The notes: a model not told the origin generated them from the sequence alone. Positions 11,719-30,664 are shown, numbered from the stretch's first letter. The stretch is DNA of 32,000 nt from Desulfobulbus propionicus DSM 2032 (GCF_000186885.1 NC_014972.1:1680001-1712000); one strand, 5' to 3'. Numbers and translations: made by a program.

Positions 11719-12705
11719 ATGTCCGAACGGCTGAAGTTCGAGCGCTTTTTCTGGTTTCACGCGCAGGTCAAGCGAGCGCGCTTCCCCAATACCAGAAATC
11801 TGGTCGAGACATTCGAGGTTTCGGAACGAACCGCCCAGCGAGACATCGACTTCATGCGTGACCGATTGGATGCGCCCCTCGAATTCGATCGATCGCGAAA
11901 CGGCTACCGCTACACGGACGACGCCTACGAAATTCCTGCCTCGTGGATCGACGAGGACAGCCTGTTGTCCTTGGCCCTGGCGGCGCGGCTGGCCTCGACC
12001 ATACCCGATACCGCCGTCAAGGAGGATTTGTGCCGCTTGATCGGTCGCATGCTCCGCCTTTCCCGACACGAGGAATATGCCTGCCTCGATCGGCTGGGCG
12101 ACAAGGTTTCCGTCAAGAATATCGAGTACGCCCGGGTAGATGAACAGTTTTTTCGTCTGATTGTTCAGGCCCTGTTCGACGACCGCTCCCTGCGCATCAC
12201 CTATTGTTCCCCACACAGCGGCGCAGTCTCCGAACGGATAGTGCAGCCGCTCCACCTGATGCACTACATGGGCAGTTGGCATCTGCTGGCTTGGTGCGCC
12301 GCCAGGGAAGCCATCCGCGATTTTGCCTTGGCTCGATTGCAGGCGGTTGCATTGGCCGATACCCCCGTGCAAGTGCCCCTCGACCTACCGCCGATCAAGG
12401 AATATACCCGCCGCCACTTCGGCATCATGCAAGGCGAGACCGCCACCATCGTGACCCTGCGTTTCTCGCCCCACATCGCCCCTCGCATCCGCGAGCAGAT
12501 CTGGCACCCCGACCAGCAGACCACCCCGAAGCCCGACGGCAGCCTCCTGCTCAGCTTTCCCACCGCCGATTTCCGCGAACTGACCCGAAATATCCTCAGC
12601 TACGGCGCCGAGGTGCGGGTGGAGGAACCGGCGGAGCTACGGGAGCTGGTTCGCGGGGAAATCGAGAAAATGTTCAGAAATTTGTGCAGCCCTGACATCG
12701 AATGA
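11719..12705 (+). CDS. HTH + WYL domain transcriptional regulator, CRISPR-associated by position
   Basis: Track ORF is 11617-12705. I prefer the ATG at 11719 (GGAGG 7 nt upstream), 328 aa. N-terminal wHTH (NTRNLVETFEVSERTAQRDIDFMRDRL). Central WYL-type segment (RIVQPLHLMHYMGSWHLLAWCAAREAIRDFALARL). Ends 64 nt before cas3, same strand. Confidence 0.8.
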   Translation: MSERLKFERFFWFHAQVKRARFPNTRNLVETFEVSERTAQRDIDFMRDRLDAPLEFDRSRNGYRYTDDAYEIPASWIDEDSLLSLALAARLASTIPDTAVKEDLCRLIGRMLRLSRHEEYACLDRLGDKVSVKNIEYARVDEQFFRLIVQALFDDRSLRITYCSPHSGAVSERIVQPLHLMHYMGSWHLLAWCAAREAIRDFALARLQAVALADTPVQVPLDLPPIKEYTRRHFGIMQGETATIVTLRFSPHIAPRIREQIWHPDQQTTPKPDGSLLLSFPTADFRELTRNILSYGAEVRVEEPAELRELVRGEIEKMFRNLCSPDIE

Positions 12706-14986: not shown

Positions 14987-14996
14987 AGGAGGAAAC

Positions 14997-15680
14997 ATGA
15001 ACGGAAACGGAAAGCGAAGCGCTCTCTTCCGCCTCAAGGTCTGGGGGCGAAACGCCTGCTTTACCAGGCCAGAAATGAAAGTGGAACGTGTTTCGTACGA
15101 TGTGATGACGCCTTCGGCAGCTCGGGGCGTACTTGAGGCCATCCTGTGGAAACCGGCTATTCGTTGGCTGGTGGAACGCATCGACGTCCTGGCTCCGATC
15201 CGTTGGGAGTCAGTCCGGAGGAACGAGGTCGGCAGTGTCATGTCCCCGCGTTCCAACGGAATTTTTATTGAGGACCAGAGGCAACAGCGGGCCGGATTGT
15301 TCCTGCGGGATGTGGCCTACACCATCCATGCGCGTCTGGAATTAACAGCCAAGGCCGGGGCGGAAGACAACCTCACCAAGTTTCAGGAAATGTTTCTGCG
15401 TAGGGCGGAGAAGGGGCAATGCTTTCATCGGCCCTACCTCGGTTGCCGGGAATTTGCCGCTGACTTCACTTTGATCCGTCAGGAGGAACCGTTACCGGAA
15501 CCGATAGGTATATCCCGTGATCTTGGCTGGATGCTGTACGATATTCAGCATGACAACCGGGCCGACAAAAACCATGTGCATTGCTGTACCGAATCCTGCC
15601 GACCTTCTTTCTTTCGGGCGGAACTATCCAATGGGGTTTTGCTTGTGCCATCGCCTGGCGATGGGGAGGTGCGGCAATGA
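14997..15680 (+). CDS. cas5c: Cas5c (Cas5d), type I-C Cascade subunit and pre-crRNA endoribonuclease
   Basis: 227 aa. FRLKVWGRNACFTRPEMKVERVSYDVMTPSAARGVLEAILWKPAIRW is the characteristic Cas5d N-terminus. No cas6 in the locus, as expected for I-C. Confidence 0.92.
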   Translation: MNGNGKRSALFRLKVWGRNACFTRPEMKVERVSYDVMTPSAARGVLEAILWKPAIRWLVERIDVLAPIRWESVRRNEVGSVMSPRSNGIFIEDQRQQRAGLFLRDVAYTIHARLELTAKAGAEDNLTKFQEMFLRRAEKGQCFHRPYLGCREFAADFTLIRQEEPLPEPIGISRDLGWMLYDIQHDNRADKNHVHCCTESCRPSFFRAELSNGVLLVPSPGDGEVRQ

Positions 15681-17419
15681 TTTTACAGGCTTTGGCAAGT
15701 TATTATCGCCGTCTATCCGAAGAAGCCGGCGCGGAAGTGGCTCCCGAGGGATTTGAAAAAAAGGAAATACCCTTTGTCATTGTGTTGGATCGCTCCGGGC
15801 ATTTTATCGGTTTAGATGATACGCGCGAGGGAGAAGGGAAGAAAAAGTTGGCACGGGTGTTTACCGTCCCGAAAGGTATCAAGAAAACCAGTGGAATCGC
15901 CGCAAATGTTTTATGGGATACACCAGCCTATATCGTCGGTCGGCCCAAACCGGATCCCAAGAAAGAAACAGTCAAACTTTTAGAACGAGCACAAGAACAA
16001 TTTCAATGTTTCCAAGATACTATTCGGGCGACTTTTTCGGATAACGAGCAGGACGAAGCAATTGCAGCCGTGTTGAATTTCCTCGGGAAAAGAGATTTTG
16101 AGCAGCTTTTTTCCCATACCGCGTGGAAAGAAATTGAGGAAAAGGGGATGAATATATCCTTTCGACTCGACACGGACACCTGTCTGATTTGCCAGCGCCC
16201 TGGTATTGTTGCGCAACTCATAGGTAACACGCAAAGAGTGGAAGGGGGCGATACCCATCGGGTGTGCCTTGTTTCCGGCGAACCGGATGAGCCGACCCGC
16301 CTGCACACGGCTATCAAGGGGGTATGGGGCGCACAAACGTCGGGAGCCAATATTGTTTCTTTCAACCTCGATGCGTTTCGTTCTTATGGAAAAGAACAAG
16401 GATTGAATGCGCCGGTGGGAGGAAGGGCTGAATTTGCATATACTACGGCACTAAATTCCATGTTGGTCAAAGGCTCGAAGCAGCGAATGCAAGTTGGTGA
16501 TGCTTCTACCGTCTTTTGGGCCGAGAAGAAAAACGATCTGGAAGATGTTTTTGCCGACATCTTTGGCGAACCATCGAAAGAAAATCCCGAGCAAGCCACC
16601 AAGGCTATTCGCATTCTCTACGAAGCCCCGAAGGCCGGGGCGCCACCGTTGACTGAAGATTACACGCCATTCTTCGTTTTGGGGCTTGCCCCCAACGCCG
16701 CCCGCATCGCTGTGCGTTTTTGGCATGCGGGCACGGTGGGTGAGACTGCCCGCCATATCTTGCAACATTTTGAAGATTGCAAAATGGTGCATGGCCCCAA
16801 ACAGCCTGGGTTTCTATCCCTTTTCCGCTTACTCGTCTCCACAGCCCTGCAAGGAAAGTCGGAAAATATCCCACCCAATCTTGCTGGCGAGTTCATGAAG
16901 GCAATTCTCGCCGGCACCCCTTACCCAAAAACCCTCTTGGCGGCGGTTCTCCGCCGTTGCCGGGCAGAACGTGAAATAACCTATCCCCGCGCCGCGCTTT
17001 TAAAAGCGGTTCTGGCTCGGGCAGCTCGATTTTATCGTCAATCAGAACAGGAGGTAGGTATGGCCTTGGATACAGGCAACAGCAATATCGGCTATCGGCT
17101 CGGGCGACTGTTCGCCACGCTGGAAAAGATTCAAGAAGAGGCAAGCCCCGGCATCAATGCAACCATCCGCGACCGTTTTTATGGTGCAGCTTCCAGCACT
17201 CCGGTGGCCGCTTTTCCGCATCTGATGAAATTGAAAAATCATCATCTTGCCAAGTTGGATAACCGGGGCCGTGCCGTGAATCTGGAAAAGGTGATCGGCG
17301 AGATCATGGATGGCATTGTCGATTTCCCGACGCATCTCTCTCTTCAGGATCAAGGCCGCTTCGCGGTGGGCTACTACCATCAACGCCAAGCCTTTTTCAT
17401 CAAAAACGAAACCAATTGA
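15677..17419 (+). CDS. cas8c: Cas8c (Csd1), type I-C large subunit
   Basis: Track ORF is 15581-17419. The real start is probably the ATG at 15677, overlapping the cas5 stop (ATGA): MILQALASYYRRLSEEAGAEVAPEGFEKKEIPFVIVLDRSG, a typical Csd1 N-terminus. 580 aa. Confidence 0.92.
   Translation: MILQALASYYRRLSEEAGAEVAPEGFEKKEIPFVIVLDRSGHFIGLDDTREGEGKKKLARVFTVPKGIKKTSGIAANVLWDTPAYIVGRPKPDPKKETVKLLERAQEQFQCFQDTIRATFSDNEQDEAIAAVLNFLGKRDFEQLFSHTAWKEIEEKGMNISFRLDTDTCLICQRPGIVAQLIGNTQRVEGGDTHRVCLVSGEPDEPTRLHTAIKGVWGAQTSGANIVSFNLDAFRSYGKEQGLNAPVGGRAEFAYTTALNSMLVKGSKQRMQVGDASTVFWAEKKNDLEDVFADIFGEPSKENPEQATKAIRILYEAPKAGAPPLTEDYTPFFVLGLAPNAARIAVRFWHAGTVGETARHILQHFEDCKMVHGPKQPGFLSLFRLLVSTALQGKSENIPPNLAGEFMKAILAGTPYPKTLLAAVLRRCRAEREITYPRAALLKAVLARAARFYRQSEQEVGMALDTGNSNIGYRLGRLFATLEKIQEEASPGINATIRDRFYGAASSTPVAAFPHLMKLKNHHLAKLDNRGRAVNLEKVIGEIMDGIVDFPTHLSLQDQGRFAVGYYHQRQAFFIKNETN
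17060..17419 (+). CDS. cas11c: candidate Cas11c small subunit, translated from an internal in-frame start within cas8c
   Basis: In-frame ATG at 17060, with AGGAGG ending 6 nt upstream of the ATG, inside the coding sequence (cagaACAGGAGGtaggtATG). It yields 119 aa (MALDTGNSNIGYRLGRLFATLEKIQEE...). Type I-C systems are known to make Cas11 by internal translation of the cas8c 3' end. Confidence 0.6.
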   Translation: MALDTGNSNIGYRLGRLFATLEKIQEEASPGINATIRDRFYGAASSTPVAAFPHLMKLKNHHLAKLDNRGRAVNLEKVIGEIMDGIVDFPTHLSLQDQGRFAVGYYHQRQAFFIKNETN

Positions 17420-17441
17420 TATTTCCTAGGAGGAGCAACTT

Positions 17442-18302
17442 ATGAGAAATCCAATCCAGAACCGGTATGACTTTGTGCTTTTGTTTGATGTAAAAGACGG
17501 TAACCCCAACGGTGATCCGGACGCTGGCAACCTGCCTCGTATCGACCCGGAAACAGGGCATGGTCTTGTCACCGATGTCTGCCTCAAACGGAAGGTGCGC
17601 AATTATGTGCAATTGGAGAAAGGCGGGGCAGTGGCCTTTGATATATTTGTGAAGGAGAGGGCCATTCTCAATAACCTTATTGATGAAGCCCATGAACAGG
17701 ACATTGTGAAAAGCAAAGAGAAAGGAGATAAAACGGAGGCTGCTCGCCAATTCATGTGCGGTAAATATTACGATGTGCGTACATTCGGCGCTGTGATGTC
17801 CACTGGGAAGAATGCTGGCCAAGTCCGTGGTCCGGTACAATTTACTTTTGCCCGGAGTGTTGATCAGATTGTGCCATTGGAGCACAGCATTACCCGTATG
17901 GCGGTGGCCACCGAGGCCGAAGCTGAAAAGCAGCAGGGCGACAACCGAACCATGGGGCGAAAATTTACCGTCCCATACGCACTTTATTGCTGCCATGGCT
18001 TTATTTCAGCCCCTTTGGCCGCTCAAACCGGATTTAGCGAAGACGATCTCAACCTGTTCTGGCAGGCCGTCATCAACATGTTCGAGCACGACCGTTCCGC
18101 AGCCCGTGGATTGATGAGCAGCCGCAAGCTCTTTGTGTTCAAACATGAGAATAAGATGGGGAATGCCCCGGCGCACAAATTGTTTGACTTGATCGACATC
18201 CAGCGGGCGGAAGGCTCGACCGGTCCGGCCCGTTCGTTCAAGGATTATGTGGTGAAGGTTGGCGCAGCACCTGATGGTGTGACGTTACTGGAAAAACTGT
18301 AA
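17442..18302 (+). CDS. cas7c: Cas7c (Csd2), type I-C Cascade backbone subunit
   Basis: 286 aa. [49 protein letters not shown] is the hallmark Csd2 N-terminus. AGGAGG upstream of the start. Confidence 0.93.
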
Positions 18303-18328
18303 TCCATAACTGTGATATTGAAGCTGTA

Positions 18329-19369
18329 ATGGAGGTGTCCTTTCCTATGCAACAGCTTGATTCCGCACCCTCCGCCATCATCCTCTATCAGACCGCAGAC
18401 GGACAAACCTCTTTGGATGTCCGGCTTCAGGAGGAAACCGTCTGGCTCTCGTTGACCCAAATAGCCGAGCTGTTCGACCGTGACAAGTCGGTAATATCCA
18501 GACATCTCAGGAACATCTTTCGGGAAGGAGAGTTGGTCAGAGCGGCAGTTGTTGCAAAAAATGCAACAACTGCCGCGGACGGCAAAACGTACCAGGTGGA
18601 ATTTTTCAACCTGGATGCGATCATCTCTGTCGGCTACCGAGTCAACTCCAAACGCGGCACCCAGTTTCGCATCTGGGCCTCGTCCGTGCTCAAGGAGTAT
18701 CTGGTCAAGGGGTATGCCCTCAACCGGCGACGGTTGGCAGAGCAGGGCGTGGCCGAGTTGCGAGGCGTGCTCGATCTGTTGGCGGCAGCCCTGGAACGCA
18801 ATCAACTCACCGACGAAACCGGATTGGCGGTGGTGGAGCTGGTGCGGCGCTATGGGATGAGCTGGCAATTGCTCCTGCAATACGACGAAGACCGGTTGGC
18901 CCTGCCGGCCGGGCTCAATCGGCGGGAGTCGGTGGGCTTTGATCTGGCCATGGTGCGCCGGGGCATTGCCTGTTTACGGGAAGAACTGGCGATCAGAGGC
19001 GAGGCCACCGATTTGTTCGGTCGGGAGCGCGGCGAAAGCTTGGCCGGTATTCTCGGCGCCATCCATCAGACCTTCGGCGGCCAGGACCTCTACCCGAGCA
19101 TCGAGGAAAAGGCCGCCCATCTCCTCTATTTCGTGATCAAGGATCACCCCTTCAGCGACGGCAACAAGCGCATCGGCTCCTTTCTTTTTCTCCTCTATCT
19201 GCAGGAAAGCGGGCTGATCGAGACAGTCCGCTTCGACAACAAGGCCGTGGTAGCCCTGGCCCTGCTAGTGGCCGCCTCCGACCCGGTCCAGAAGGAGGTG
19301 CTCATCCGGTTGATCGTTAATTTGCTCGGCGAATCAATCCCATCCGACGGAGGAGGGCAGCATGGCTGA
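18329..19369 (+). CDS. RhuM / Fic-DOC family protein inserted in the cas operon
   Basis: 346 aa (alternative start ATG 18347, 11 nt after GGAGG). N-terminal half is RhuM-like (WLSLTQIAELFDRDKSVISRHLRNIF, FFNLDAIISVGYRVNSKRGTQFRIWA). C-terminal half has the Fic/Doc core motif HPFSDGNKRIG, which is Doc-type (GNKR). Its stop overlaps the cas4 start by 8 nt (ATGGCTGA, 19362-19369). Confidence 0.8.
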   Translation: MEVSFPMQQLDSAPSAIILYQTADGQTSLDVRLQEETVWLSLTQIAELFDRDKSVISRHLRNIFREGELVRAAVVAKNATTAADGKTYQVEFFNLDAIISVGYRVNSKRGTQFRIWASSVLKEYLVKGYALNRRRLAEQGVAELRGVLDLLAAALERNQLTDETGLAVVELVRRYGMSWQLLLQYDEDRLALPAGLNRRESVGFDLAMVRRGIACLREELAIRGEATDLFGRERGESLAGILGAIHQTFGGQDLYPSIEEKAAHLLYFVIKDHPFSDGNKRIGSFLFLLYLQESGLIETVRFDNKAVVALALLVAASDPVQKEVLIRLIVNLLGESIPSDGGGQHG

Positions 19370-20039
19370 GATCGCCCCGGAACAATCGATCCTCAAAACA
19401 TACGAACCGCCGCCGTACGACGAGGACGACCTGGTGATGATCTCCGCCTTGCAGCATTACCTGTTCTGTCCGCGCCAGTGTGCTTTGATCCATATCGAAC
19501 AACAATGGCTCGAAAACCGATTGACCGCCGAAGGTCGCCTCCTTCATGAACGGGTGCATGGCGGCGGCCGGGAATCGCGGCGACAACTGCGGGTGGAGTT
19601 CGATGTGCCCATTCGTTCGTTGCGGCTGGGGGTGATCGGCCGGGCGGACATCGTCGAATTTCATCGGCGGGAGGATGGGCTGTGGTGTCCCCTGCCAGTG
19701 GAATACAAGCGCGGACGACCCAAGAAGGACGATACCGACCGGGTGCAGCTCTGCGCTCAGGCCCTCTGTCTGGAAGAGATGCTACGGTGCGCCGTACCCG
19801 AGGGGGCGCTCTACTACGGCGAAAAGAAGCGGCGGTCGGCGGTGCTGTTCGACGCACCCTTGCGGGAGAAGACGGCACAGACGGCGAAGGCGGTCCACGC
19901 CCTGCTTACGGGGGGAAGGACGCCGCCACCCCATTATGCGGCCCGCTGCGAGAACTGTTCATTCATGCCGCTCTGTCTGCCCAAGGTGGCGACCAGGAAG
20001 CGGGTGGGGCATTATCTGCACAAAATGATGGGGGTATGA
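19362..20039 (+). CDS. cas4: Cas4 (RecB-like exonuclease with 4-Cys cluster)
   Basis: 225 aa. N-terminal Cys (YLFCPRQCAL), nuclease core (GRADIVEF, EYKRG) and C-terminal CENCSFMPLC. Confidence 0.92.
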   Translation: MAEIAPEQSILKTYEPPPYDEDDLVMISALQHYLFCPRQCALIHIEQQWLENRLTAEGRLLHERVHGGGRESRRQLRVEFDVPIRSLRLGVIGRADIVEFHRREDGLWCPLPVEYKRGRPKKDDTDRVQLCAQALCLEEMLRCAVPEGALYYGEKKRRSAVLFDAPLREKTAQTAKAVHALLTGGRTPPPHYAARCENCSFMPLCLPKVATRKRVGHYLHKMMGV

Positions 20040-21064
20040 AAAAACATCTCAACACCCTGTTCGTCACCACCCAGGGGGCCTACCTGGCCAAGGATGGCGA
20101 GACCGTGGCGGTCCGCATCGAGGGCGAGGTGGTCCTGCGGGTCCCGCTCCATACCCTGGAATCCATCGTCTGTCTCGGTAATGTCGGTTGCAGCCCTTTT
20201 TTGATGGGATTCTGCGGCGAGCGTGGGGTGGGGATGAGTTTTCTCACTGAAAACGGGCGATTTCTGGCGCGGGTGCAAGGGCCGGTTTCGGGCAACGTGC
20301 TGCTGCGGCGCGAGCAGTACCGCCGCGCCGACGATCCGGATTTTTCCGCTGCCGTGGCCAGTGCTTGCGTGCTCGGCAAGGTGGCCAACTGCCGGACCGT
20401 GCTCCTTCGCGCCTTGCGTGATCATGGCAACAAGGTAGATGCGCCGGTGCTACAGGAGGCTATCGACCGGTTGGCAGCGGCGCTCAGGCGATTGCAGGGC
20501 GGATTGGCGTTGGAGGAGGTGCGCGGGGTGGAAGGTGATGCGGCCCGGGTCTATTTCAGTGCCTTCGATCATCTCATCGTCCGCGACAAAGACAAATTTT
20601 TCATGCGCCAGCGCAGTCGCCGGCCGCCGCTTGACCGTATCAACTGCTTGATTTCCTTCCTCTACACGTTGCTGCTCAACGATGTGCGCTCCGCGCTTGA
20701 ATCGGTGGGCCTTGATCCGGCGGTCGGCTATCTGCACCGCGATCGTCCGGGGCGGGCCGGATTGGCCCTTGATCTGATGGAGGAGTTCCGGCCCATGGCG
20801 GATCGGCTGGCGGTTTCATTGGTCAATCTGGGACAGTTGCGCGAGGAGGATTTTGTGTTCAGCGACGGCGGCGCGGTGCGGATGAGCGATGAGGCCCGCA
20901 AAACCCTGCTGGTAGCGTATCAGAAGCGCAAACAGGAAGAAATGGTGCATCCCTTTCTGGAGGAGAAAATGTCGCTGGGGCTGTTTTTTCATACCCAAGC
21001 CCTGCTCTTTGCCCGCTATCTGCGTGACGAACTCGACGGTTATCCGCCGGTGATGTGGAAATAG
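20036..21064 (+). CDS. cas1: Cas1 integrase
   Basis: Track ORF is 19682-21064. The real start is probably the ATG at 20036, overlapping the cas4 stop (ATGA): MKKHLNTLFVTTQGAYLAKDGETVAVRIEG... 342 aa. Conserved GVEGDAARVYF and GYLHRDRPGRAGLALDLMEEFR. Confidence 0.93.
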   Translation: MKKHLNTLFVTTQGAYLAKDGETVAVRIEGEVVLRVPLHTLESIVCLGNVGCSPFLMGFCGERGVGMSFLTENGRFLARVQGPVSGNVLLRREQYRRADDPDFSAAVASACVLGKVANCRTVLLRALRDHGNKVDAPVLQEAIDRLAAALRRLQGGLALEEVRGVEGDAARVYFSAFDHLIVRDKDKFFMRQRSRRPPLDRINCLISFLYTLLLNDVRSALESVGLDPAVGYLHRDRPGRAGLALDLMEEFRPMADRLAVSLVNLGQLREEDFVFSDGGAVRMSDEARKTLLVAYQKRKQEEMVHPFLEEKMSLGLFFHTQALLFARYLRDELDGYPPVMWK

Positions 21065-21076
21065 GGGAGGGCGGCC

Positions 21077-21367
21077 ATGATGGTGCTGGTGAGTTACGAT
21101 GTGCGCACAAGCGAGCCAGGCGGCGCCAAGCGCTTGCGGCGGGTGGCCAAGGTGTGCCGCAATTTCGGTCAGCGGGTACAATTTTCGGTGTTCGAGTGCA
21201 TGGTGGACCCGGCGCAATGGACCCGATTGCGGCAGGCGTTGATTGACGAGATCGACATGGAGGCCGACAGTCTCCGTTTTTACTTCCTCGGGGCCAACTG
21301 GCGCAACCGGGTGGAGCATGTCGGCGCCAAGGAGAGCGTGGACCAGGAAGGTCCGCTGATTGTGTAA
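21077..21367 (+). CDS. cas2: Cas2
   Basis: 96 aa, MMVLVSYDVRTSEPGGAKRLRRVAKVCRNFGQRVQFSVFEC..., a typical Cas2 ferredoxin fold N-terminus. Confidence 0.93.
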   Translation: MMVLVSYDVRTSEPGGAKRLRRVAKVCRNFGQRVQFSVFECMVDPAQWTRLRQALIDEIDMEADSLRFYFLGANWRNRVEHVGAKESVDQEGPLIV

Positions 21368-21540
21368 ACCGGTCCGCGAACCGTCATCGCCCAGCAGATG
21401 ACGGACGGTTCGCGATGCCTGTGGTTGCGACGGTTGACAAGGATTTGAGCAACAAGAGGAGGTGAATCAAGCCGCTCAGATCGGACGATCGCGGAACATG
21501 CTGGAAAAACTGATTCGTAATGCAATGTTGCGAGTCAGCA
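21368..21540 (+). promoter_or_regulatory. CRISPR leader
   Basis: 173-nt non-coding stretch between the cas2 stop and the first repeat. Contains an imperfect hairpin (CGCGAACCGTCATC 21375-21388 / GATGACGGACGGTTCGCG 21397-21414, no U-tract) and a perfect TTGACA at 21434-21439, but I could not find a matching -10 box. Polarity is supported by repeat decay at the far end of the array. Confidence 0.6.
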
Positions 21541-24500
21541 GTCGCCCCCCACGCGGGGGCGTGGATTGAAACACGTATCGCAGCGCGTCACCGTTGCTCT
21601 TCACCGCGTCGCCCCCCACGCGGGGGCGTGGATTGAAACGCGAGGAACGCGGAGAAGTTGATACCGGATGCAAGTCGCCCCCCACGCGGGGGCGTGGATT
21701 GAAACTCAGCCTCCCCCTCAACGAGGAGTGGGAGACAAGTCGCCCCCCACGCGGGGGCGTGGATTGAAACCGCTGCTGCTGGCGACAAACTCGTTATATG
21801 CCTCGTCGCCCCCCACGCGGGGGCGTGGATTGAAACTTATGCTGGGTGGTCGGTTGTCTGGTAGATATCGTGTCGCCCCCCACGCGGGGGCGTGGATTGA
21901 AACCAGCTAGAGGTCGCTGTCGCGCCAGAGATCGACCGTCGCCCCCCACGCGGGGGCGTGGATTGAAACCTCGCAACATTACGCCGCATCCCGTATCGCC
22001 CGAGTCGCCCCCCACGCGGGGGCGTGGATTGAAACTCAAGCGCCCATGCCGTGCAAGTTTTAGCGTCGCCGTCGCCCCCCACGCGGGGGCGTGGATTGAA
22101 ACTTTTTGCTGCCTTTTTTTGCTGCCTTGTTGCTGCCGTCGCCCCCCACGCGGGGGCGTGGATTGAAACTCGGCGCAGATAAAAAGGAAGTTTTCAAACC
22201 GAGTCGCCCCCCACGCGGGGGCGTGGATTGAAACACCGCTTCCATCGAAGCCTCAAGTCCAACAATTGCGTCGCCCCCCACGCGGGGGCGTGGATTGAAA
22301 CGCTGCTCCTTGCTGGTCTCCGGCCCTTGCGCGAGTCGCCCCCCACGCGGGGGCGTGGATTGAAACTGGTAAATCGTATTATCTGGTCAGGTTGCTGGCC
22401 GTCGCCCCCCACGCGGGGGCGTGGATTGAAACCTGTTAAAGCGGTATACCTGCTCGACTATGACCAAAGTCGCCCCCCACGCGGGGGCGTGGATTGAAAC
22501 AAAGACGACATCATGACTTATGACAGGCACTTCAAGTCGCCCCCCACGCGGGGGCGTGGATTGAAACCTGTTAAAGCGGTATACCTGCTCGACTATGACC
22601 AAGTCGCCCCCCACGCGGGGGCGTGGATTGAAACACAGATAGTAAACCCGAAAATCGAAAGTGTTTTTAGTCGCCCCCCACGCGGGGGCGTGGATTGAAA
22701 CCTGTTAAAGCGGTAATCCTCCAGGGGGATTTCCTGTCGCCCCCCACGCGGGGGCGTGGATTGAAACAGACTGCCGGTAGCAGCGACGCGGCTGCATCGC
22801 TGGGTCGCCCCCCACGCGGGGGCGTGGATTGAAACCGGCAAATCGTATTATCTGGTCAGGTTGCTGGCCGTCGCCCCCCACGCGGGGGCGTGGATTGAAA
22901 CATGGCAAGGGGGGTTGAATGAAACCTAAGCGAAGTCGCCCCCCACGCGGGGGCGTGGATTGAAACGGTGCAGTTGTTACTATATAGACAAGGAAGGGGG
23001 GTCGCCCCCCACGCGGGGGCGTGGATTGAAACGCCGCTCCTGGTGTCGCTCAATGGGATGAAGACGGTCGCCCCCCACGCGGGGGCGTGGATTGAAACGG
23101 TTTTGAAGCGATGAACCCGGCAGAATGACCGGGTCGCCCCCCACGCGGGGGCGTGGATTGAAACTTTTTGAACCGACATCGCTGCGCTCGTCGGCGGGCG
23201 TCGCCCCCCACGCGGGGGCGTGGATTGAAACGAGGAAATCGTCATGATCGGAGCATTGGCAGGCAGTCGCCCCCCACGCGGGGGCGTGGATTGAAACATG
23301 CAGGTTGCGCTCATTGCGCTTGAGCAAATAGGTCGCCCCCCACGCGGGGGCGTGGATTGAAACCGAAACATGCCAATAACGAAACTCCCCCATCAAGTCG
23401 CCCCCCACGCGGGGGCGTGGATTGAAACCTTAGCGTCATCTTGGGTTCAGATTATTGGCGGCGGGTCGCCCCCCACGCGGGGGCGTGGATTGAAACCGGA
23501 GACCGTCACGTCCTGGCCAGAAACGAAACCAGTCGCCCCCCACGCGGGGGCGTGGATTGAAACCTCGGCCGCATCGATCATCGATCCCGCCTCATGTCGT
23601 CGCCCCCCACGCGGGGGCGTGGATTGAAACACCGGCGACGCGCCGACCAGGAGGGTCTGAAATGTCGCCCCCCACGCGGGGGCGTGGATTGAAACCACAT
23701 CACCATGCCGAGTTTTGGCAACACGCCAAGTCGCCCCCCACGCGGGGGCGTGGATTGAAACTCAAACCAGGAGAACACCGGTGCCGGCACCTCTGGTCGC
23801 CCCCCACGCGGGGGCGTGGATTGAAACGCGCCGAGCAGTTTCGGCACAACTGGAACCCGACGTCGCCCCCCACGCGGGGGCGTGGATTGAAACTCTGAAA
23901 TCAACTGTTGCCACACCTGCTGCTGCTGTCGCCCCCCACGCGGGGGCGTGGATTGAAACGCGGCAGCATGGCCGCAGATCGCCGACGCTTATGCGGTCGC
24001 CCCCCACGCGGGGGCGTGGATTGAAACTTGCTGGAGACATTGGCGCGGTTGCAGGGCCAAGTCGCCCCCCACGCGGGGGCGTGGATTGAAACCAAGTCAA
24101 TGGCCATATCAGCCTGAAACGAATCGGTCGCCCCCCACGCGGGGGCGTGGATTGAAACCCGTGCTGACATGGCTGCGCAAGCATGCCCGTGTGGTCGCCC
24201 CCCACGCGGGGGCGTGGATTGAAACGCCGCATCAGGCAATGGATGGCTGGAGAGCGCAAAGTCGCCCCCCACGCGGGGGCGTGGATTGAAACCCCGTAAC
24301 AAAGAAGGTGCTCCCTTTTCTTGCCGGGCGGTCGCCCCCCACGCGGGGGCGTGGATTGAAACGCCGATGAGCGTGCCGTAGCTGTACACCCGCACTGCGT
24401 CGCCCCCCACGCGGGGGCGTGGATTGAAACCTGGTGCATCCAGTCCGGCCTGACCTTAACCAGCTGTCGCCCCCCACGCGGGGGCGTGGATTGAAACGCC

Positions 24501-24698
24501 GCACCATGAAATCGTGTGCGAAGCGCTCATGTCGCCCCCCACGCGGGGGCGTGGATTGAAACACGGCCGAACCGCACGCTCCGGACTGCCATTCAAAGGT
24601 CGCCCCCCACGCGGGGGCGTGGATTGAAACGACGATGTGTCTGACGACGTGATTGCCGCAGCTCCGGTCGCCCCCCACGCGGGGGCGTGGATTGAAAC

Positions 24699-24832
24699 TG
24701 GCCGGCTCGCTGCCAATAACTCCTGGCAGGCGCGTCGCCCCCCACGCGGGGGCGTGGATTGAAACTGGCCGGCTCGCTGCCAATAACTCCTGGCAGGCGC
24801 GTCGCCCCCCACGCGGGGGCGTGGATTGAAAC
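24699..24832 (+). repeat. tandem duplication of one spacer-repeat unit inside the array
   Basis: Spacer TGGCCGGCTCGCTGCCAATAACTCCTGGCAGGCGC occurs at 24699-24733 and again at 24766-24800, in consecutive units. Confidence 0.9.
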
Positions 24833-24845
24833 TGCAGACTGATAA

Positions 24846-25049
<204 letters not shown>

Positions 25050-25823
25050 TGAAAGAAAAAATGAGTCGCCCCCCACGCGGGGGCGTGGATTGAAACATCA
25101 TGCCGCCCCCTCCACATTGACCCATGATATGTCGCCCCCCACGCGGGGGCGTGGATTGAAACGTGAACTTCCGCGCCATCTTCTTGTTCATGATCAGTCG
25201 CCCCCCACGCGGGGGCGTGGATTGAAACACGAGGGGTCAGGGGCCACAATCCTGCTGATCGGGTCGCCCCCCACGCGGGGGCGTGGATTGAAACATACTT
25301 GCCGACCAGTGGCAAGAGCGGGTTACTAGTCGCCCCCCACGCGGGGGCGTGGATTGAAACCTTTTTCCCATTGCTTATATGCTCAGGTGATAGGTCGCCC
25401 CCCACGCGGGGGCGTGGATTGAAACAACTCCCCCGGTTACGGACTTACAAAATCCCCAAGTCGCCCCCCACGCGGGGGCGTGGATTGAAACGCAGTAAGT
25501 GCCACGCCATAGGACAATGGTATGGTCGCCCCCCACGCGGGGGCGTGGATTGAAACATTGAGCGCAAAGAGATCACAGGCAAGAACGGTGGGTCGCCCCC
25601 CACGCGGGGGCGTGGATTGAAACACGTATTGCAGCGCGTCACCGTCTTCCTTCACCGCGTCGCCCCCCACGCGGGGGCGTGGATTGAAACCCTGGATTGT
25701 GGATGCTGGCAGACAGGGAAGGACGGTCGCCCCCCACGCGGGGGCGTGGATTGAAACTGGGCCATGCTCACCATGGCCTCGATAGCCTTGTGTCGCCCCC
25801 CACGCGGGGGCGTGGATTGAAAC

Positions 25824-26355
25824 ATCTGGCATCAAGGAGTGTCGCGGTTACGAAACGGTCGCCCCCCACGCGGGGGCGTGGATTGAAACTGTATCGGAAG
25901 TTGAACTTAAAAACAAAGGAGGTGTCGCCCCCCACGCGGGGGCGTGGATTGAAACATGTCGAGCTCATGGTTGCCGGGGTGAGGTACCGGCGTCGCCCCC
26001 CACGCGGGGGCGTGGATTGAAACCATGGCCTCCGGGATGGTTGGACCGGTGGGGATGGTCGCCCCCCACGCGGGGGCGTGGATTGAAACATCTGGCATCA
26101 AGGAGTGTCGCGGTTACGAAACGGTCGCCCCCCACGCGGGGGCGTGGATTGAAACTGTATCGGAAGTTGAACTTAAAAACAAAGGAGGTGTCGCCCCCCA
26201 CGCGGGGGCGTGGATTGAAACATGTCGAGCTCATGGTTGCCGGGGTGAGGTACCGGCGTCGCCCCCCACGCGGGGGCGTGGATTGAAACCATGGCCTCCG
26301 GGATGGTTGGACCGGTGGGGATGGTCGCCCCCCACGCGGGGGCGTGGATTGAAAC
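25824..26355 (+). repeat. tandem duplication of a 266-bp block of four spacer-repeat units
   Basis: The spacers starting ATCTGGCATCAAGG.., TGTATCGGAAGTTG.., ATGTCGAGCTCATGG.. and CATGGCCTCCGGGATGG.. at 25824-26089 are repeated in the same order at 26090-26355. Confidence 0.9.
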
Positions 26356-26445
26356 CCCGCCGTCATCGCTGAGTTGGTTGAGAATAAACGTCGCCCCCCA
26401 CGCGGGGGCGTGGATTGAAACCCGTTTTTGGTCTTCCCAGGCTGA

Positions 26446-26622
<177 letters not shown>

Positions 26623-27282
26623 TGATTCAATCGCCTGCCTCAACTTGTCCTTGAGTGTCGCCCCCCACGCGGGGGCGTGGATTGAAACTTGGGTATACGA
26701 CCGGGAAGATTTACAAAGAGGCCAGTCGCCCCCCACGCGGGGGCGTGGATTGAAACTTTACTGTACGGTGCATTATTTTCTATCGTTGTAGTCGCCCCCC
26801 ACGCGGGGGCGTGGATTGAAACGTTACGGGGGAAACGGTCCCCTATCTAGGGTTTGTCGCCCCCCACGCGGGGGCGTGGATTGAAACATAATAACTACCA
26901 TACTGTAGGATAATGATATACTAGTCGCCCCCCACGCGGGGGCGTGGATTGAAACGTTAGTTTGTTTGTTTATTCGGTTGTCTCTCGCTGTCGCCCCCCA
27001 CGCGGGGGCGTGGATTGAAACTTCAACTCAAGGCCAACGCCGAAATCCTCAAGGCCGTCGCCCCCCACGCGGGGGCGTGGATTGAAACTGATGAAGATCA
27101 CGCTATCGAGGAATGTGATGGTGTCGCCCCCCACGCGGGGGCGTGGATTGAAACTTTATGACGGAATGGTAAGCGCTGATAATTTTGGTCGCCCCCCACG
27201 CGGGGGCGTGGATTGAAACTATATCACCCTTAACGCCTCCCCAAAAATGGGGTGTCGCCCCCCACGCGGGGGCGTGGATTGA

Positions 27283-27549
<267 letters not shown>

Positions 27550-27665
27550 TGAAACTTGAAACCGCTAAACGAACGCTACCCGATCAAAGGTCGCCCCCCA
27601 CGCGGGGCGTGGATTGAAACCGAAACTGCAAATCACGGGCGGTCCATGAGGGCCACCCCGCGCTG

Positions 27666-27890
27666 GTGATTCGGGCCAAGGGCAAAAAGGCCCTGTTTTG
27701 GAAAGGAGCACGGCACCCGGTGAAGGCGGTACATCAACCGGCGCGGAAGGGGAAGCCTTTCTTGCGGGAAGCGGCCGAGGAGCTGGAGCGCGAAGGATAT
27801 GACTTCCTCGACCGCTATTTAACAGACAAGGTGAACGAAAAAATTGCCAAGGAGATCAAGGGCAAGATCACTTTGACGTTGAAGCTGTGA
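27666..27890 (+). CDS. probable 3' fragment of a phage gene (weak resemblance to the HK97 gp10-type head-tail protein C-terminus)
   Basis: 74 aa from a GTG start. The frame is already open from 27618, inside repeat R92, with no ATG. HPVKAVHQPARKGKPFLREAAEE resembles the H/G..PFLRPA segment of HK97-gp10-like proteins. Low certainty. Confidence 0.35.
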   Translation: MIRAKGKKALFWKGARHPVKAVHQPARKGKPFLREAAEELEREGYDFLDRYLTDKVNEKIAKEIKGKITLTLKL

Positions 27891-27935
27891 CCTGAGCTAA
27901 GCTGTTGCTTGCCGTTGAGAGTAGCAACTGTATAC

Positions 27936-28202
27936 CTACCAAAGCGCCCCTTGTGGCAAATTGATCCATGATTGCACGATACGCCGCATGTCTTCTCGGT
28001 ATTCGGCATCGGCAATTGTCTCGATTATCCGCAGCGCCTCCTTGTGCTCGCCGCGGTCGACGAGGAGCCCGGCAATCTTGAATTTTTCAGTGTCGGTTCC
28101 TTCGAGAAGTTTCAAGTGATTGGCAAGTTCTGGATCGTCCGGGTCGCCGAAGCTTTCCTCTATTTCTTCCCTGGTCGGGTGATAGTCGAGATAGGTTTTC
28201 AT
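27936..28202 (-). CDS. small acidic hypothetical protein, translationally coupled to the upstream MuF-HExxH gene
   Basis: 88 aa, MKTYLDYHPTREEIEESFGDPDDPELANHLKLLEG... About 20 D/E versus 11 K/R by my count. Its start overlaps the stop of 28199-29572 (ATGA at 28199-28202). Confidence 0.55.
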   Translation of the reverse strand: MKTYLDYHPTREEIEESFGDPDDPELANHLKLLEGTDTEKFKIAGLLVDRGEHKEALRIIETIADAEYREDMRRIVQSWINLPQGALW

Positions 28203-29572
28203 GGCGTCACCCTGGCAAGCAATTGGTTGAATTTCACATCGTCGTCGAGAGCGTCAATCGCCTTGCCGATATCCGACCGGTCAGCGCTGGTTTGTTGCGC
28301 GCGAAAGAGCATGTCCGTCACCGGCGCTTTGAAATTCCACCGGTTGACCCCTTCATTGATTTGCACCAGCTGTTCCAGGATGTTGTCGTCGCTGATACCC
28401 AGCTTAGCGAGTAACGTGTCAAAGTTTCTGATCCATCCCCGGTATCCTAGACCCTGCGCCTTCACCATCTCCATGTGAACCGGTTCGATACCCAGCTCTT
28501 TCAATACAGCTGGGTAAGTGCGCCGAGCGGTCCACTGGTTGACCACCTCCATGAGCATCCGGCGTTGGGACTTCTTTCCGATCCCGATTGATACGCCGGC
28601 GTTCTGGCGGTTGTGCTGGATCTCGTGCCAGAGCGATTCAAGGGCGTACTCCTCAAGAAATGTGAGTTGTTCGCCGCGGTTGATCTTGATGAATGCGTCC
28701 ATCATTGCACCTGCAGGCGACCATTTAACCGTAACCGGAATGCCGGTCGCCTCGGTGTAGCTGACCCATGTCTTGGTTGTTGAAAAATATACGTCTCCAG
28801 ATGAATATGTCCACATAAACGAACCATGCATACCGCGCTCTGCCTTGGCGATGCGGATTGGGTTGTCGCCGCCCAGGTGGCCGAGCTTGGAAACGATAAC
28901 CCGCTCCACATCGGCATAGTTGCGGATTCTACCGAGGGGCGGCTGGTTCTTGCTGGGTTCCGGCCCGGTTGTTGGTGCTGACCCATCACTGTTGTCGCCA
29001 GCTTGGGCGAAGAACTCGGCAACAGTGATCGTCCGGCATCGAGCGTGATAAGGGGGGAGTCCTATCTTGCCGCGCGCCACTTGGCGATTGATGGCGTTCT
29101 GTGAGGTCAGGTTCTCGGCTTGTGCGTCGCTCCACCATGGCCATGCAGCCTTTATCTTCTCCTTGCTGCCGCTTTCACAGGCCGCCATGTACTGTTCCAC
29201 CTGACGGCGCAGATCCATAACCGCGATCACTGTACCGTGCAGGCGGCGACAAGTCTCACTGGTCTTACTGTCGAGCCTGGCCTTAACCCGAACCACCTCA
29301 ATACCGGCCTTTTCGTATCCGGACACCCGGCCGATCTCCCTAATCTTAGTGGCGGTGTGGTCGGCGAGTAAGTCCCAATAGGCCGTACCCTTGTCGCCCA
29401 GCGTTTTAAAATGCACCTTCATTAGCTCGGCCAAGTCGCGTCGATTGTATCCACCTTCAAAATAATCCTGCAGCACGGCGCGAAATCCTTCCTGGATATT
29501 GTCGTTGTAGTGGCTGCCAATCCAGAAACGAGTATTGCGGTCAAGAATTTCGAGTGATTTTGAATCGGGCAA
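28199..29572 (-). CDS. phage MuF / SPP1 gp7-like head morphogenesis domain protein with a C-terminal HExxH (putative zinc metallopeptidase) domain; probably 5'-truncated
   Basis: 457 aa. MuF-type segment IREIGRVSGYEKAGIEVVRVKARLDSKTSETCRRLHGTVIAV. C-terminal region contains LWHEIQHNRQ (HExxH). The only start is a TTG 5 nt from the orphan repeat, and the frame stays open through that repeat up to a stop at 29639-29641. Confidence 0.7.
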   Translation of the reverse strand: MPDSKSLEILDRNTRFWIGSHYNDNIQEGFRAVLQDYFEGGYNRRDLAELMKVHFKTLGDKGTAYWDLLADHTATKIREIGRVSGYEKAGIEVVRVKARLDSKTSETCRRLHGTVIAVMDLRRQVEQYMAACESGSKEKIKAAWPWWSDAQAENLTSQNAINRQVARGKIGLPPYHARCRTITVAEFFAQAGDNSDGSAPTTGPEPSKNQPPLGRIRNYADVERVIVSKLGHLGGDNPIRIAKAERGMHGSFMWTYSSGDVYFSTTKTWVSYTEATGIPVTVKWSPAGAMMDAFIKINRGEQLTFLEEYALESLWHEIQHNRQNAGVSIGIGKKSQRRMLMEVVNQWTARRTYPAVLKELGIEPVHMEMVKAQGLGYRGWIRNFDTLLAKLGISDDNILEQLVQINEGVNRWNFKAPVTDMLFRAQQTSADRSDIGKAIDALDDDVKFNQLLARVTP

Positions 29573-29577
29573 ATCCC

Positions 29578-29609
29578 GTCGCCCCCCACGCGGGGGCGTG
29601 GATTGAAAT
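29578..29609 (+). CRISPR. orphan / terminal CRISPR repeat, 31 of 32 nt identical to the array repeat
   Basis: GTCGCCCCCCACGCGGGGGCGTGGATTGAAAT, with last base C->T, in the same orientation as the array and 1,957 bp after R92. The C->T change is corroborated by the track ORF 29541-29780, which reads [12 protein letters not shown] where array ORFs read [11 protein letters not shown]. Confidence 0.9.
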
Positions 29610-29766
29610 TTCCTGTTCCCGCCTCTTTCCCTCCTGGCTCAGCCACCTGCTCGACCACACACAACCGGCGATTCCAATGGTCAACGGTCGAGTGTGGATC
29701 AAACCGGTGCGGCCAACCTGAGTCAGGATTCTGGTCGCCGTTTGATTGGAGTCGCCATGGAGATAA

Positions 29767-30414
29767 TCAACGAGGAACAAGGGAAGGCGGAGGGGGAGTT
29801 CGTGGCAGATGTTTGGTTACCTGTTGCAGGAACAGAACGGGTGCCGTGTGCTTGACCTCCGCCATGGACGGTGGTGTTTGAGTCTCCATCATCATCGAAC
29901 TTACCGCACATCCGGCCAAACCGCAGGGATTGATCCGTTCGTAGGACCGCAGGTCCGGGCAGACATTGAGGGCAAAGCCGTGCAGGGTCACCCAGTGGCG
30001 GACGCCGACACCAATGAAGCCGATTTTGCCACGAGACGACCAGACCCCGGTTTGCCCGGCAACCCGGTGCGCCGGAATGTGGAAGGCGACCAGGGTGGCG
30101 ATCAGCACCTCTTCCAGGAAGCGCATCCAGCGATGGAGGTCGCGGCCTCGTCTGCCGAGATGAACGAGTGGGTAACCCACCAACTGTCCCGGCCCGTGCC
30201 AAGCCACATCCCCACCCCGGTTGATACGCTCAACGGGGAGGGTGGAATCGAGGATGTTGGCCAGATCGCCGCCCCGGCCGATGGTATAGACGGCGGGATG
30301 TTCGAGCAGCAGCAGGGTCTCTTCCTCGTTGCCGGCGGCAATTTCCGCTGCCAGCCGCTCCTGCAGAGCCAGGGCCTCGCGGTACTCGACCAGGCCGCAG
30401 TCGAGGATGCGCAT
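29767..30414 (-). CDS. lipB: lipoyl(octanoyl) transferase LipB
   Basis: 215 aa. LLLLEHPAVYTIGRGG, RINRGGDVAWHGPGQLVGYP and KIGFIGVGVRHWVTLHGFALNV are typical of LipB. Confidence 0.9.
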   Translation of the reverse strand: MRILDCGLVEYREALALQERLAAEIAAGNEEETLLLLEHPAVYTIGRGGDLANILDSTLPVERINRGGDVAWHGPGQLVGYPLVHLGRRGRDLHRWMRFLEEVLIATLVAFHIPAHRVAGQTGVWSSRGKIGFIGVGVRHWVTLHGFALNVCPDLRSYERINPCGLAGCAVSSMMMETQTPPSMAEVKHTAPVLFLQQVTKHLPRTPPPPSLVPR

Positions 30415-30418
30415 GGCC

Positions 30419-30664
30419 TCAGGGGAGGCGGGCCATGAGATACCTGGTCATGGCCGCCAGGGTCGACAGTTTGCCGTAGTCCGATTCGGGGATGTCCACC
30501 CCGGTGCGTTCGTTCAGTCCAACCAGCACACGGAGAAAACTGAACGAATCGATGTCCAGGGCCTCGCGGATGTTCTCGTCCGGCGCCAGCTCGACCGGGT
30601 CGCATTCGGGCGCGACCTTTTTCAGTTCGGCAAAAATATGGGAAAGCAGTTCCTGTTCGGTCAT
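30419..30664 (-). CDS. acyl-carrier-protein-like (phosphopantetheine-binding) protein
   Basis: 81 aa, with the carrier-protein signature around ALDIDSFSFLRVL (Ser of the DS motif). Its start overlaps the E2 stop (ATGA 30661-30664), and its stop lies 4 nt before the lipB start. Confidence 0.75.
   Translation of the reverse strand: MTEQELLSHIFAELKKVAPECDPVELAPDENIREALDIDSFSFLRVLVGLNERTGVDIPESDYGKLSTLAAMTRYLMARLP

Follow-up and report, generated by a model that had tools for sequence, protein, structure and literature searches.

The length of spacers in CRISPR arrays is regarded as tightly ruler-controlled. To our knowledge, the large DNA found within such arrays consists of self-mobile elements, namely insertion sequences (IS), Tn7-like transposons and prophages with repeat-matching attachment (att) sites. 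Casposons move kilobase DNA with a Cas1-family integrase and duplicate their target. Tn7-like transposons have been described that target CRISPR repeats (PMC11837452), and in Streptococcus pyogenes the whole prophage PhiAP1.1 enters a CRISPR repeat by its own integrase, its attP site matching the repeat (Varble et al., bioRxiv 10.1101/2020.10.09.333658). Here we describe a 32,000-nucleotide stretch of the chromosome of the sulfate reducer Desulfobulbus propionicus DSM 2032 (GCF_000186885.1 NC_014972.1:1680001-1712000), hereafter the window, which carries a type I-C CRISPR-Cas locus with a 1,957-bp phage fragment in the last spacer slot of its array. We conclude with high confidence that this insert is a single, lineage-specific capture that occupies the last repeat-spacer unit and is flanked on both sides by a complete repeat.

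The array contains 93 copies of the repeat GTCGCCCCCCACGCGGGGGCGTGGATTGAAAC, all on the same strand, of which 90 are perfect. R91 (27524-27555) has a single G-to-A substitution, and the two remaining deviating copies, R92var and R93var, are those that flank the insert (Table 1). The gap between them (27621-29577) measures 1,957 bp, compared to 33-38 nt for each of the other 91 spacers, and has a GC content of about 51-56%, compared to about 63-65% in the host flank. The cas operon and leader lie upstream of the array, and the insert stands at the trailer, or oldest, end. An initial annotation, made from the sequence alone, had placed a further repeat copy at 29578-29609, matching at 31 of 32 positions in the same orientation and followed by a 157-nt trailer and lipB. 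This was borne out on realignment, the one mismatch being a change of the final C to T, and all coordinates in that annotation hold. A search of the repeats against Rfam gave nothing beyond sub-threshold CRISPR-DR9 matches.

The insert is phage DNA, as initially proposed, and is collinear with phage contigs. Its only open reading frames (ORFs) are a MuF-like gene, an 88-aa gene and a gp10-like fragment; no integrase, transposase or casposase is present. Four lines identify the product of the long minus-strand ORF as MuF-like: a sub-threshold Pfam match to Phage_Mu_F (PF04233; E=7e-4, 20.7 bits against a curated cut-off of 29.6), PHROG matches to minor head proteins, homologues that carry PF04233 and are named as SPP1 gp7 family, and an AlphaFold2 model (predicted local distance difference test score 85.6) that matches minor capsid/MuF-like proteins in BFVD with E=4e-5 to 1e-3. 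Homologues from intact phages are 573-589 aa long. The gapless alignment to residues 120-577 of the protein from phage contig L088 means that 119 codons are missing and that what looks like a TTG "start" at 29572 encodes an internal Leu of the phage gene. The gp10-like fragment (89 aa) has no Pfam match itself; it is 42% identical to a 153-aa protein of phage contig L021, and its distant homologues P0112 and P0113 carry PF04883. Both ends of the insert thus lie inside phage ORFs, at MuF codon 120 and at about codon 55-59 of the gp10-like gene. The reading frames given in the initial annotation are correct. The plus-strand frame is open from 27618; a TGA stop within the repeat at 27615-27617 precedes it. 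The minus-strand ORF 28199-29572 starts with TTG and its frame stays open through R93 to a stop at 29639-29641, and both outer ORFs, described there as cut at the borders, do lack codons relative to their phage homologues.

The same annotation took the convergence of the outer genes as the mark of a rearranged remnant, which does not stand, as the same convergent order is native in four phage contigs (L088, L021, L087 and L098). In L088, L021 and L087 the order is portal, gp10-like, the convergent 88-aa and MuF-like genes, then a Zn-ribbon gene and TerL. The 88-aa gene follows the MuF-like gene in every related phage (L020, L021, L088 and L098), with 41-83% conservation among phages. L098 resembles the window in that its gp10-like and 88-aa genes meet stop-to-stop, and relative to this contig the insert shows no internal deletion scar. 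Judged by this collinearity, we have high confidence that the insert represents one contiguous slice of a phage genome, and likewise high confidence that the source was a temperate-looking, HK97-fold tailed phage circulating among Desulfobulbales. BLASTN of the insert against 50,697 GenBank phage records gave no match, and a search of IMG/VR with the MuF-like protein found only L023, a distant contig. Among the best 120 homologues of the portal protein none is from D. propionicus, so DSM 2032 seems to be without this phage as a prophage. As a side observation, the site between the 88-aa and gp10-like genes is a moron hotspot in the phages (L020 4412-5088, L088 5256-7630 and L021 11604-11987), occupied by HicAB, by a toxin-antitoxin pair of the Gp49/HI1420 type, by antirepressors (ANT, pRha) or by a 127-aa ORF; in L098 and the window the slot is empty.

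MuF domains fused to polymorphic toxins have reportedly been described by Jamet et al. in 2017. The gene in the insert resembles MuF/SPP1 gp7 proteins in its MuF-like domain, in a C-terminal extension of about 260 aa with an HExxH-like WHEIQH motif, and in the small conserved gene downstream; variation is greatest in the C-terminal region and at the start of the small gene. It differs from them in that the copy in the window is without the N-terminal 119 residues and scores below the Pfam cut-off. Unlike MuF toxin-immunity pairs, it shows no toxin fold or family: the extension (residues 200-457) gave no recognizable family or fold match, and the 88-aa partner is well conserved, unlike typical immunity proteins.

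Exact-protein look-ups with LipB led to seven further contigs (L001-L005, L008 and L009) that carry lipB, the trailer, R93var, the insert and R92var. They come from seven different samples and three assembly sources (MEGAHIT, JGI and Logan, from ENA, JGI and Logan data). The insert is exactly 1,957 bp long in all seven, with R92var before it and a repeat ending in GAAAT after it; the L002 type has one additional substitution in R93. The longer contigs (L001-L004 and L008) extend into the array, and three of them (L001, L003 and L004) reach cas2. The Logan contigs L005 and L009 run unbroken from lipB via R93var and the insert into R92var, and a Logan contig from SRR29904083 covers R90 to R93. 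The contigs fall into three lineages with arrays of 74-98 repeats. Their ordinary spacers, roughly 90 per array, almost all differ between lineages and from the window, and the flanking operon is about 99.5% identical among the lineages. This confirms that the insert structure is real and inherited, not a mis-assembly. A chimeric join through the repeat, for which the initial annotation had asked for a check, has a negligible probability. It is true that R93 is identical to the consensus repeat over its first 31 nt, where short-read graphs can therefore branch, and several Logan contigs do end at this stretch. Against it stand the identical structure in eight assemblies made by different methods, the unique sequence of R92var linked directly to the insert, the two contigs uninterrupted across both junctions, and the origin of the window in a finished genome. 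When metagenomes were scanned for the left junction, taken as the repeat end and the 15 nt that follow it, there were no matches, a weak result as the collection evidently lacks even the JGI contigs known to carry the junction.

Lineages that lack the insert were reached through a second LipB allele (P0116). In L090, a contig of the metagenome-assembled genome GCA_029267735.1 whose flank is 99.3% identical to the window, lipB and the same trailer are followed by R93var, an ordinary 33-nt spacer and then ordinary repeats. This is an empty site, relative to which the filled site carries one extra repeat plus the insert. The comparison with orthologous arrays that the initial annotation proposed thus finds an ordinary spacer at this position in a sister lineage. 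That annotation had also named, as a result that would speak against it, an intact island of these genes in relatives, unrelated to the array; the empty site of the sister lineage favors the finding instead. In contig L094, R93var is joined straight to the leader and cas2, the array having collapsed to a single repeat (908-1270). Another collapsed array, in L092 (2096-2438), has the leader type of L097 (8372-8719). The 154 nt beside R93var in L092 were considered as a second giant insert and rejected, as they are the leader of the divergent I-C operon in L097, which has the same repeat. Evidently, the CRISPR-cas module beside lipB has been swapped and reset by recombination. The terminal repeat ending in GAAAT is ancestral, because it is found in insert-bearing, empty-site and collapsed lineages; the insert and R92var are specific to one clade. 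A search of GTDB species representatives via LipB was of no use for synteny, as the nearest relatives returned are about 65% identical with no array beside lipB, and D. propionicus is not among them.

Two further features of the L090 array were noted. At the start of its contig (JAJUHU010000009.1), a 163-nt AT-rich sequence (12972-13134) abuts a repeat and ends in AGCA, as does the true leader; this may be an additional leader, or else a further insertion that is not a spacer. The second repeat from the contig start has lost one C from its C6 run. Since 1-base homopolymer indels recur in the repeat in this way, the missing G of R92var need not be tied to the insertion.

Comparison of the chromosomal alleles of the insert reveals a mosaic. 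Outside two patches (Table 1) the alleles differ by at most about 2%, with seven synonymous and three non-synonymous changes, and within the patches each allele resembles a different phage. Between 29077 and 28600 all alleles are 96-99% identical to L088, and over the 400 bases from 28700 to 29100 each allele has 5-9 differences from L088, which is as near as the alleles are to one another. One sample, ERR7764195, yielded both L088 and a host contig of D. propionicus type (L095). Independent captures are excluded because the ends and the length are identical across alleles, and later gene conversion with infecting phages as donors then explains the mosaicism best, and would also account for the intact ORFs and the 7:3 synonymous bias. 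The alleles thus show what appears to be ongoing exchange between the insert and live phages.

Compared with canonical type I-C acquisition by Cas1-Cas2-Cas4, the locus is alike in having phage DNA between two complete repeats of the same orientation, in the slot of the oldest spacer. It is unlike it in the length of the insert (1,957 bp versus 33-38 nt, about 55 times longer), in having no demonstrable TTC protospacer adjacent motif (PAM) and 15 nt of unclear origin at the leader-side end, and in that processing into a usable CRISPR RNA (crRNA) is implausible. Judged as a spacer, the insert has full direct repeats on both sides (on the left, a complete repeat and then the 15 nt) and is of foreign origin, and it departs from a spacer in its length. 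With PhiAP1.1 it shares the placement of phage DNA between CRISPR repeats. However, the insert is a 2-kb fragment of head genes, two of its three genes truncated, with no integrase and no repeat-like site in its relatives. Solitary repeats acting as RNA anti-CRISPRs (Racrs; PMC10651486) and phage mini-arrays would supply repeat homology for recombination with a host array, but no repeat-like stretch of at least 16 nt was found in about 53 kb of related phage DNA (L020-L023 and L087-L089, genomes incomplete), and an exact search of IMG/VR with the repeat's first 31 bases gave no match. Tn7-like elements and IS also bring kilobase DNA into arrays, and casposons demonstrate that enzymes of the Cas1 family can insert long DNA with duplication of the target. 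The insert differs in lacking a transposase or casposase, in having no terminal inverted repeats, and in that its cargo is a random-looking internal phage slice.

The two junctions are not equally clean. On the right, phage homology continues up to the very base that adjoins R93, and there is no microhomology. On the left, R92var is complete and phage homology at the level of BLAST begins only from about 27636. Compared to the phage sequence TCGAACCTGAAC, which is itself similar to the repeat end TTGAAAC, the first 15 nt match at 8 of 10 and 9 of 12 positions at two different offsets. They could be diverged phage sequence, filler, a microhomology junction or what is left of an older spacer. 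Neither the first 15-20 nt of the insert nor its last 35 nt match the spacers better than shuffled controls do, and the initial annotation was right that the junctions carry no duplicated spacer. A TTC is present at the left start of homology in L088 only, one of four close relatives, and under one of two alignments. At the right end, a hypothetical terminal spacer of 33-38 nt would have no TTC in the window or in any phage. A 10-nt match, CGGGGCGTGG, is shared by R92var (27602-27611) and L087 (7323-7332), 29 nt upstream of the clear start of homology. It has four Gs, as in R92var and unlike the consensus repeat, is absent in L088 and has a chance probability of about 0.01-0.05; as a clue to the junction it was set aside.

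We tentatively favor an adaptation-type integration of an untrimmed phage fragment as the route of capture, with a probability of roughly 0.4; this is the leading reading, with break repair or recombination nearly as likely. A long linear phage fragment would have been joined at both borders of a repeat, either by Cas1-Cas2(-Cas4) chemistry or by repair of border nicks made by that enzyme, and the repeat would have been duplicated during joining, as in spacer acquisition. With no older spacer downstream, the event would have taken place right after collapse of the array to a single repeat, or ectopically at the terminal repeat. The trailer-most position could be understood because the first acquisition after a collapse ends up trailer-most, and collapsed arrays are seen in the species. 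The insert would now be a fossil at the trailer end, whose about 2 kb of homology lets circulating phages overwrite patches by recombination. Apart from its length, the footprint is that of Cas1-Cas2 integration: a repeat on each side, one extra repeat, the oldest slot and arbitrary ends in phage genes. In I-C systems with a TTC PAM, the last base of the repeat, a C, may stem from the PAM (PMC8482600), in which case repeats ending in GAAAC could grow from a single repeat ending in GAAAT, compatible with the collapse scenario. The insert probably plays no role in interference, as a 2-kb guide could not be expected to build a Cascade complex. The initial annotation had listed aberrant integrase capture among three origins, and it is viable but unproven. 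A TTC directly 5' of CGAAACTG in the source phage, together with native 15 nt, would support PAM-guided capture by the integrase.

Several points weigh against such an integration. We know of no Cas1-Cas2 system that integrates kilobase substrates, and the length of I-C spacers is tightly set, at 33-38 nt here. The first 15 nt align cleanly with no phage relative and break an SNLNYAR motif that all relatives conserve, and the left junction may not be a clean join of phage and repeat; the TTC at that end is confined to one relative and depends on the alignment. R92var and R93var differ at two positions and, if duplicates, have mutated since. The 7:3 synonymous bias could mean that the ORFs are under selection, not fossil. 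Gain and loss cannot be polarized, the empty site being equally possible as a secondary loss by recombination between R92 and R93. The stronger claim, that the I-C adaptation module, or repair at its border nicks, installed kilobase phage DNA as a bona fide spacer, perhaps as the first acquisition after the collapse, is unlikely on our estimate.

Break repair or illegitimate recombination, possibly facilitated by homology, could instead have captured phage DNA in the last spacer unit or units during infection. The 15 nt after R92 would then be filler or the 5' remnant of an old spacer, and the exact right border would be due to chance or to an earlier spacer, taken from this phage, whose short homology acted as an anchor. 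We consider this rather unlikely, though a serious competitor. It fits the failure of the 15 nt to align with phage relatives, their beginning with CGAAAC, an echo of the last bases of the repeat, and the imperfect microhomology at the left junction between the repeat 3' end TTGAAAC and phage TCGAAC. Genes for RecT and a YqaJ-type exonuclease are present in the related phage L021, repeat-mediated rearrangements are frequent at the locus (a block duplication and the collapsed arrays), and there is no clear PAM. Random joining, however, would give the base-exact right junction with a chance of only roughly 1/35-1/67 and, if breaks are random, the terminal position in one of 92 units; both repeats are complete, the hypothetical anchor spacer has no TTC PAM in the window and all phage relatives, and the 15 nt match no known spacer beyond chance. 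The more specific proposal of recombination between a spacer and its protospacer was already disfavored in the initial annotation, in part by a GTC triplet where a PAM should be. We agree, as this triplet is GTC or ATC in all phage relatives too, and as none of 277 unique spacers from five arrays matches: in the phage contigs, in the alleles of the insert and in the remainder of the window they gave chance matches of 13-18 nt only. Homologous recombination repeat by repeat with a phage, plasmid or foreign array bearing the 32-nt repeat, followed by internal deletion, was the first origin that the annotation listed, with a solitary repeat or mini-array borne by a phage or plasmid, and our estimate for it is very low. 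The partner could also have carried an att site matching the repeat, and the event would be akin to PhiAP1.1-type integration. Solitary phage repeats (PMC10651486) and prophage integration in repeats (bioRxiv 10.1101/2020.10.09.333658) are documented elsewhere, and the divergent I-C locus in L097 shares the repeat, so repeat-bearing DNA moves between strains. But the repeat searches above, in related phage DNA and IMG/VR, gave this origin no support; both borders lie mid-gene, where a functional phage could not carry repeats; the fragment is collinear and unscarred compared to L098; and there is no integrase.

Whatever its origin, the cassette might now be a selected host function, which we regard as improbable, if slightly less so than the recombination between repeats. 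The truncated MuF-like and 88-aa proteins would be made by read-through from lipB, or a long antisense RNA by read-through from the array, and either could disturb how related phages assemble heads or express genes, as a form of superinfection exclusion. In its favor, all three alleles keep the 457-aa and 88-aa ORFs intact although they diverge locally by up to 28%, synonymous changes outnumber non-synonymous ones outside the patches, no terminator is predicted between lipB and the insert, and every lineage of the clade has kept the insert through a turnover of about 90 spacers. ORF integrity and synonymous bias are explained equally well, however, if patches were recently imported from functional phage genes, and the "start" codon is an internal Leu codon with no promoter-like site upstream. 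Sister lineages live without the insert, and it has no match to defense families in PHROGs (the dedicated PADLOC library was not searched). A promoter and terminator scan of 27400-30500 gave nothing informative.

The insert is a single event, real, clean and testable. A non-mobile internal phage slice in spacer geometry, together with an empty-site allele and near-identical circulating phages, makes it possible to test whether Cas1-Cas2(-Cas4) or nick repair can install kilobase DNA. If the adaptation-type integration holds, CRISPR arrays would occasionally capture gene-sized foreign DNA, bridging spacer acquisition and casposon-type integration, and the captured 2 kb of homology would form a recombination interface with circulating phages and a possible route by which phages gain host repeats. 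If it was only a repair accident, the locus is a well-documented curiosity. The structure also bears on the use of trailer-end spacers as phylogenetic anchors and on sequence exchange between arrays and phages, and CRISPR finders will split or truncate such arrays during annotation. Literature searches on long spacers and on D. propionicus CRISPR anomalies found no prior description.

Table 1 Features of the I-C locus and of the insert, in window coordinates
Feature	Coordinates	Strand	Remarks
Type I-C cas operon: cas3, cas5c, cas8c, cas7, RhuM/Fic ORF, cas4, cas1, cas2	12770-21367	+	Pfam; mapped gene calls of L011-L013 (98-100% identical loci)
RhuM/Fic ORF	18329-19369	+	Between cas7 and cas4
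cas1	20036-21064	+	
cas2	21077-21367	+	
CRISPR leader	21368-21540	+	Between cas2 and R1; identical to the sequence joined to R93var in collapsed-array contig L094
Array proper, R1-R92 and 91 ordinary spacers of 33-38 nt	21541-27620	+	
R92var, 31-nt repeat, one G short in the G5 run	27590-27620	+	Insert-bearing lineages only; not in empty-site array L090
Insert, 1,957 bp, a contiguous phage genome fragment in the last spacer slot	27621-29577		Collinear with L088, L021, L087, L020 and L098
First 15 nt of insert, CGAAACTGCAAATCA, origin uncertain	27621-27635	+	Identical in all three chromosomal alleles
gp10-like 3' fragment, last 85 codons and stop of a 143-aa HK97-gp10-like head-tail gene, ~54 N-terminal codons missing	27636-27890	+	89% aa identity to P0101 residues 59-143
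Gap between convergent stop codons, 45 bp	27891-27935		Variable moron slot in phage relatives
88-aa phage gene, complete (Despr_1495)	27936-28202	-	Conserved downstream partner of MuF-like gene
Mosaic patch 1	28056-28655		Window versus L001/L002 alleles 20-28% divergent; L001/L002 version 88-98% identical to phage L088
MuF-like minor capsid gene without first 119 codons (Despr_1496)	28199-29577	-	88% identity, gapless, to L088 protein residues 120-577
Mosaic patch 2	29256-29555		About 10-19% divergent, L001-type allele only, there closer to phage L020
R93var, terminal repeat ending ...GAAAT	29578-29609	+	Common to insert-bearing, empty-site and collapsed-array lineages
Trailer, 157 nt	29610-29766		Identical or 1 nt different across all lineages
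lipB (octanoyltransferase)	29767-30414	-	Pfam LplA-B_cat E=9e-35; last gene of 2-oxoacid dehydrogenase operon transcribed toward the array

Some observations concern the surroundings of the insert. Transcription of the lipB operon (minus strand) and that of the array (plus strand) converge on the insert, with no terminator-like site between the lipB stop and R93 (29610-29766); in empty-site strains, read-through from lipB would be predicted to yield anti-crRNA transcripts. The RhuM/Fic ORF inside the I-C operon encodes 346 aa with a RhuM and a Fic/DOC domain; it shares 8 nt with cas4, and all related loci (L003 and L011-L013) have conserved it. A regulator with a WYL/WCX domain lies directly upstream of cas3 on the plus strand, at about 11719-12705, as judged from the gene calls of the near-identical locus L011. 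Within the array, a block of four units is tandemly duplicated with 100% identity (25792-26057 and 26058-26323), and one spacer is tandemly duplicated at 24699 and 24766 (within 24699-24832). Near-identical pairs or triplets of spacers, about 90-95% identical and with the same start, are found at 21573/25624, 22433/22568/22702 and 22367/22836, which suggests that the same protospacer was acquired repeatedly from variant phages.

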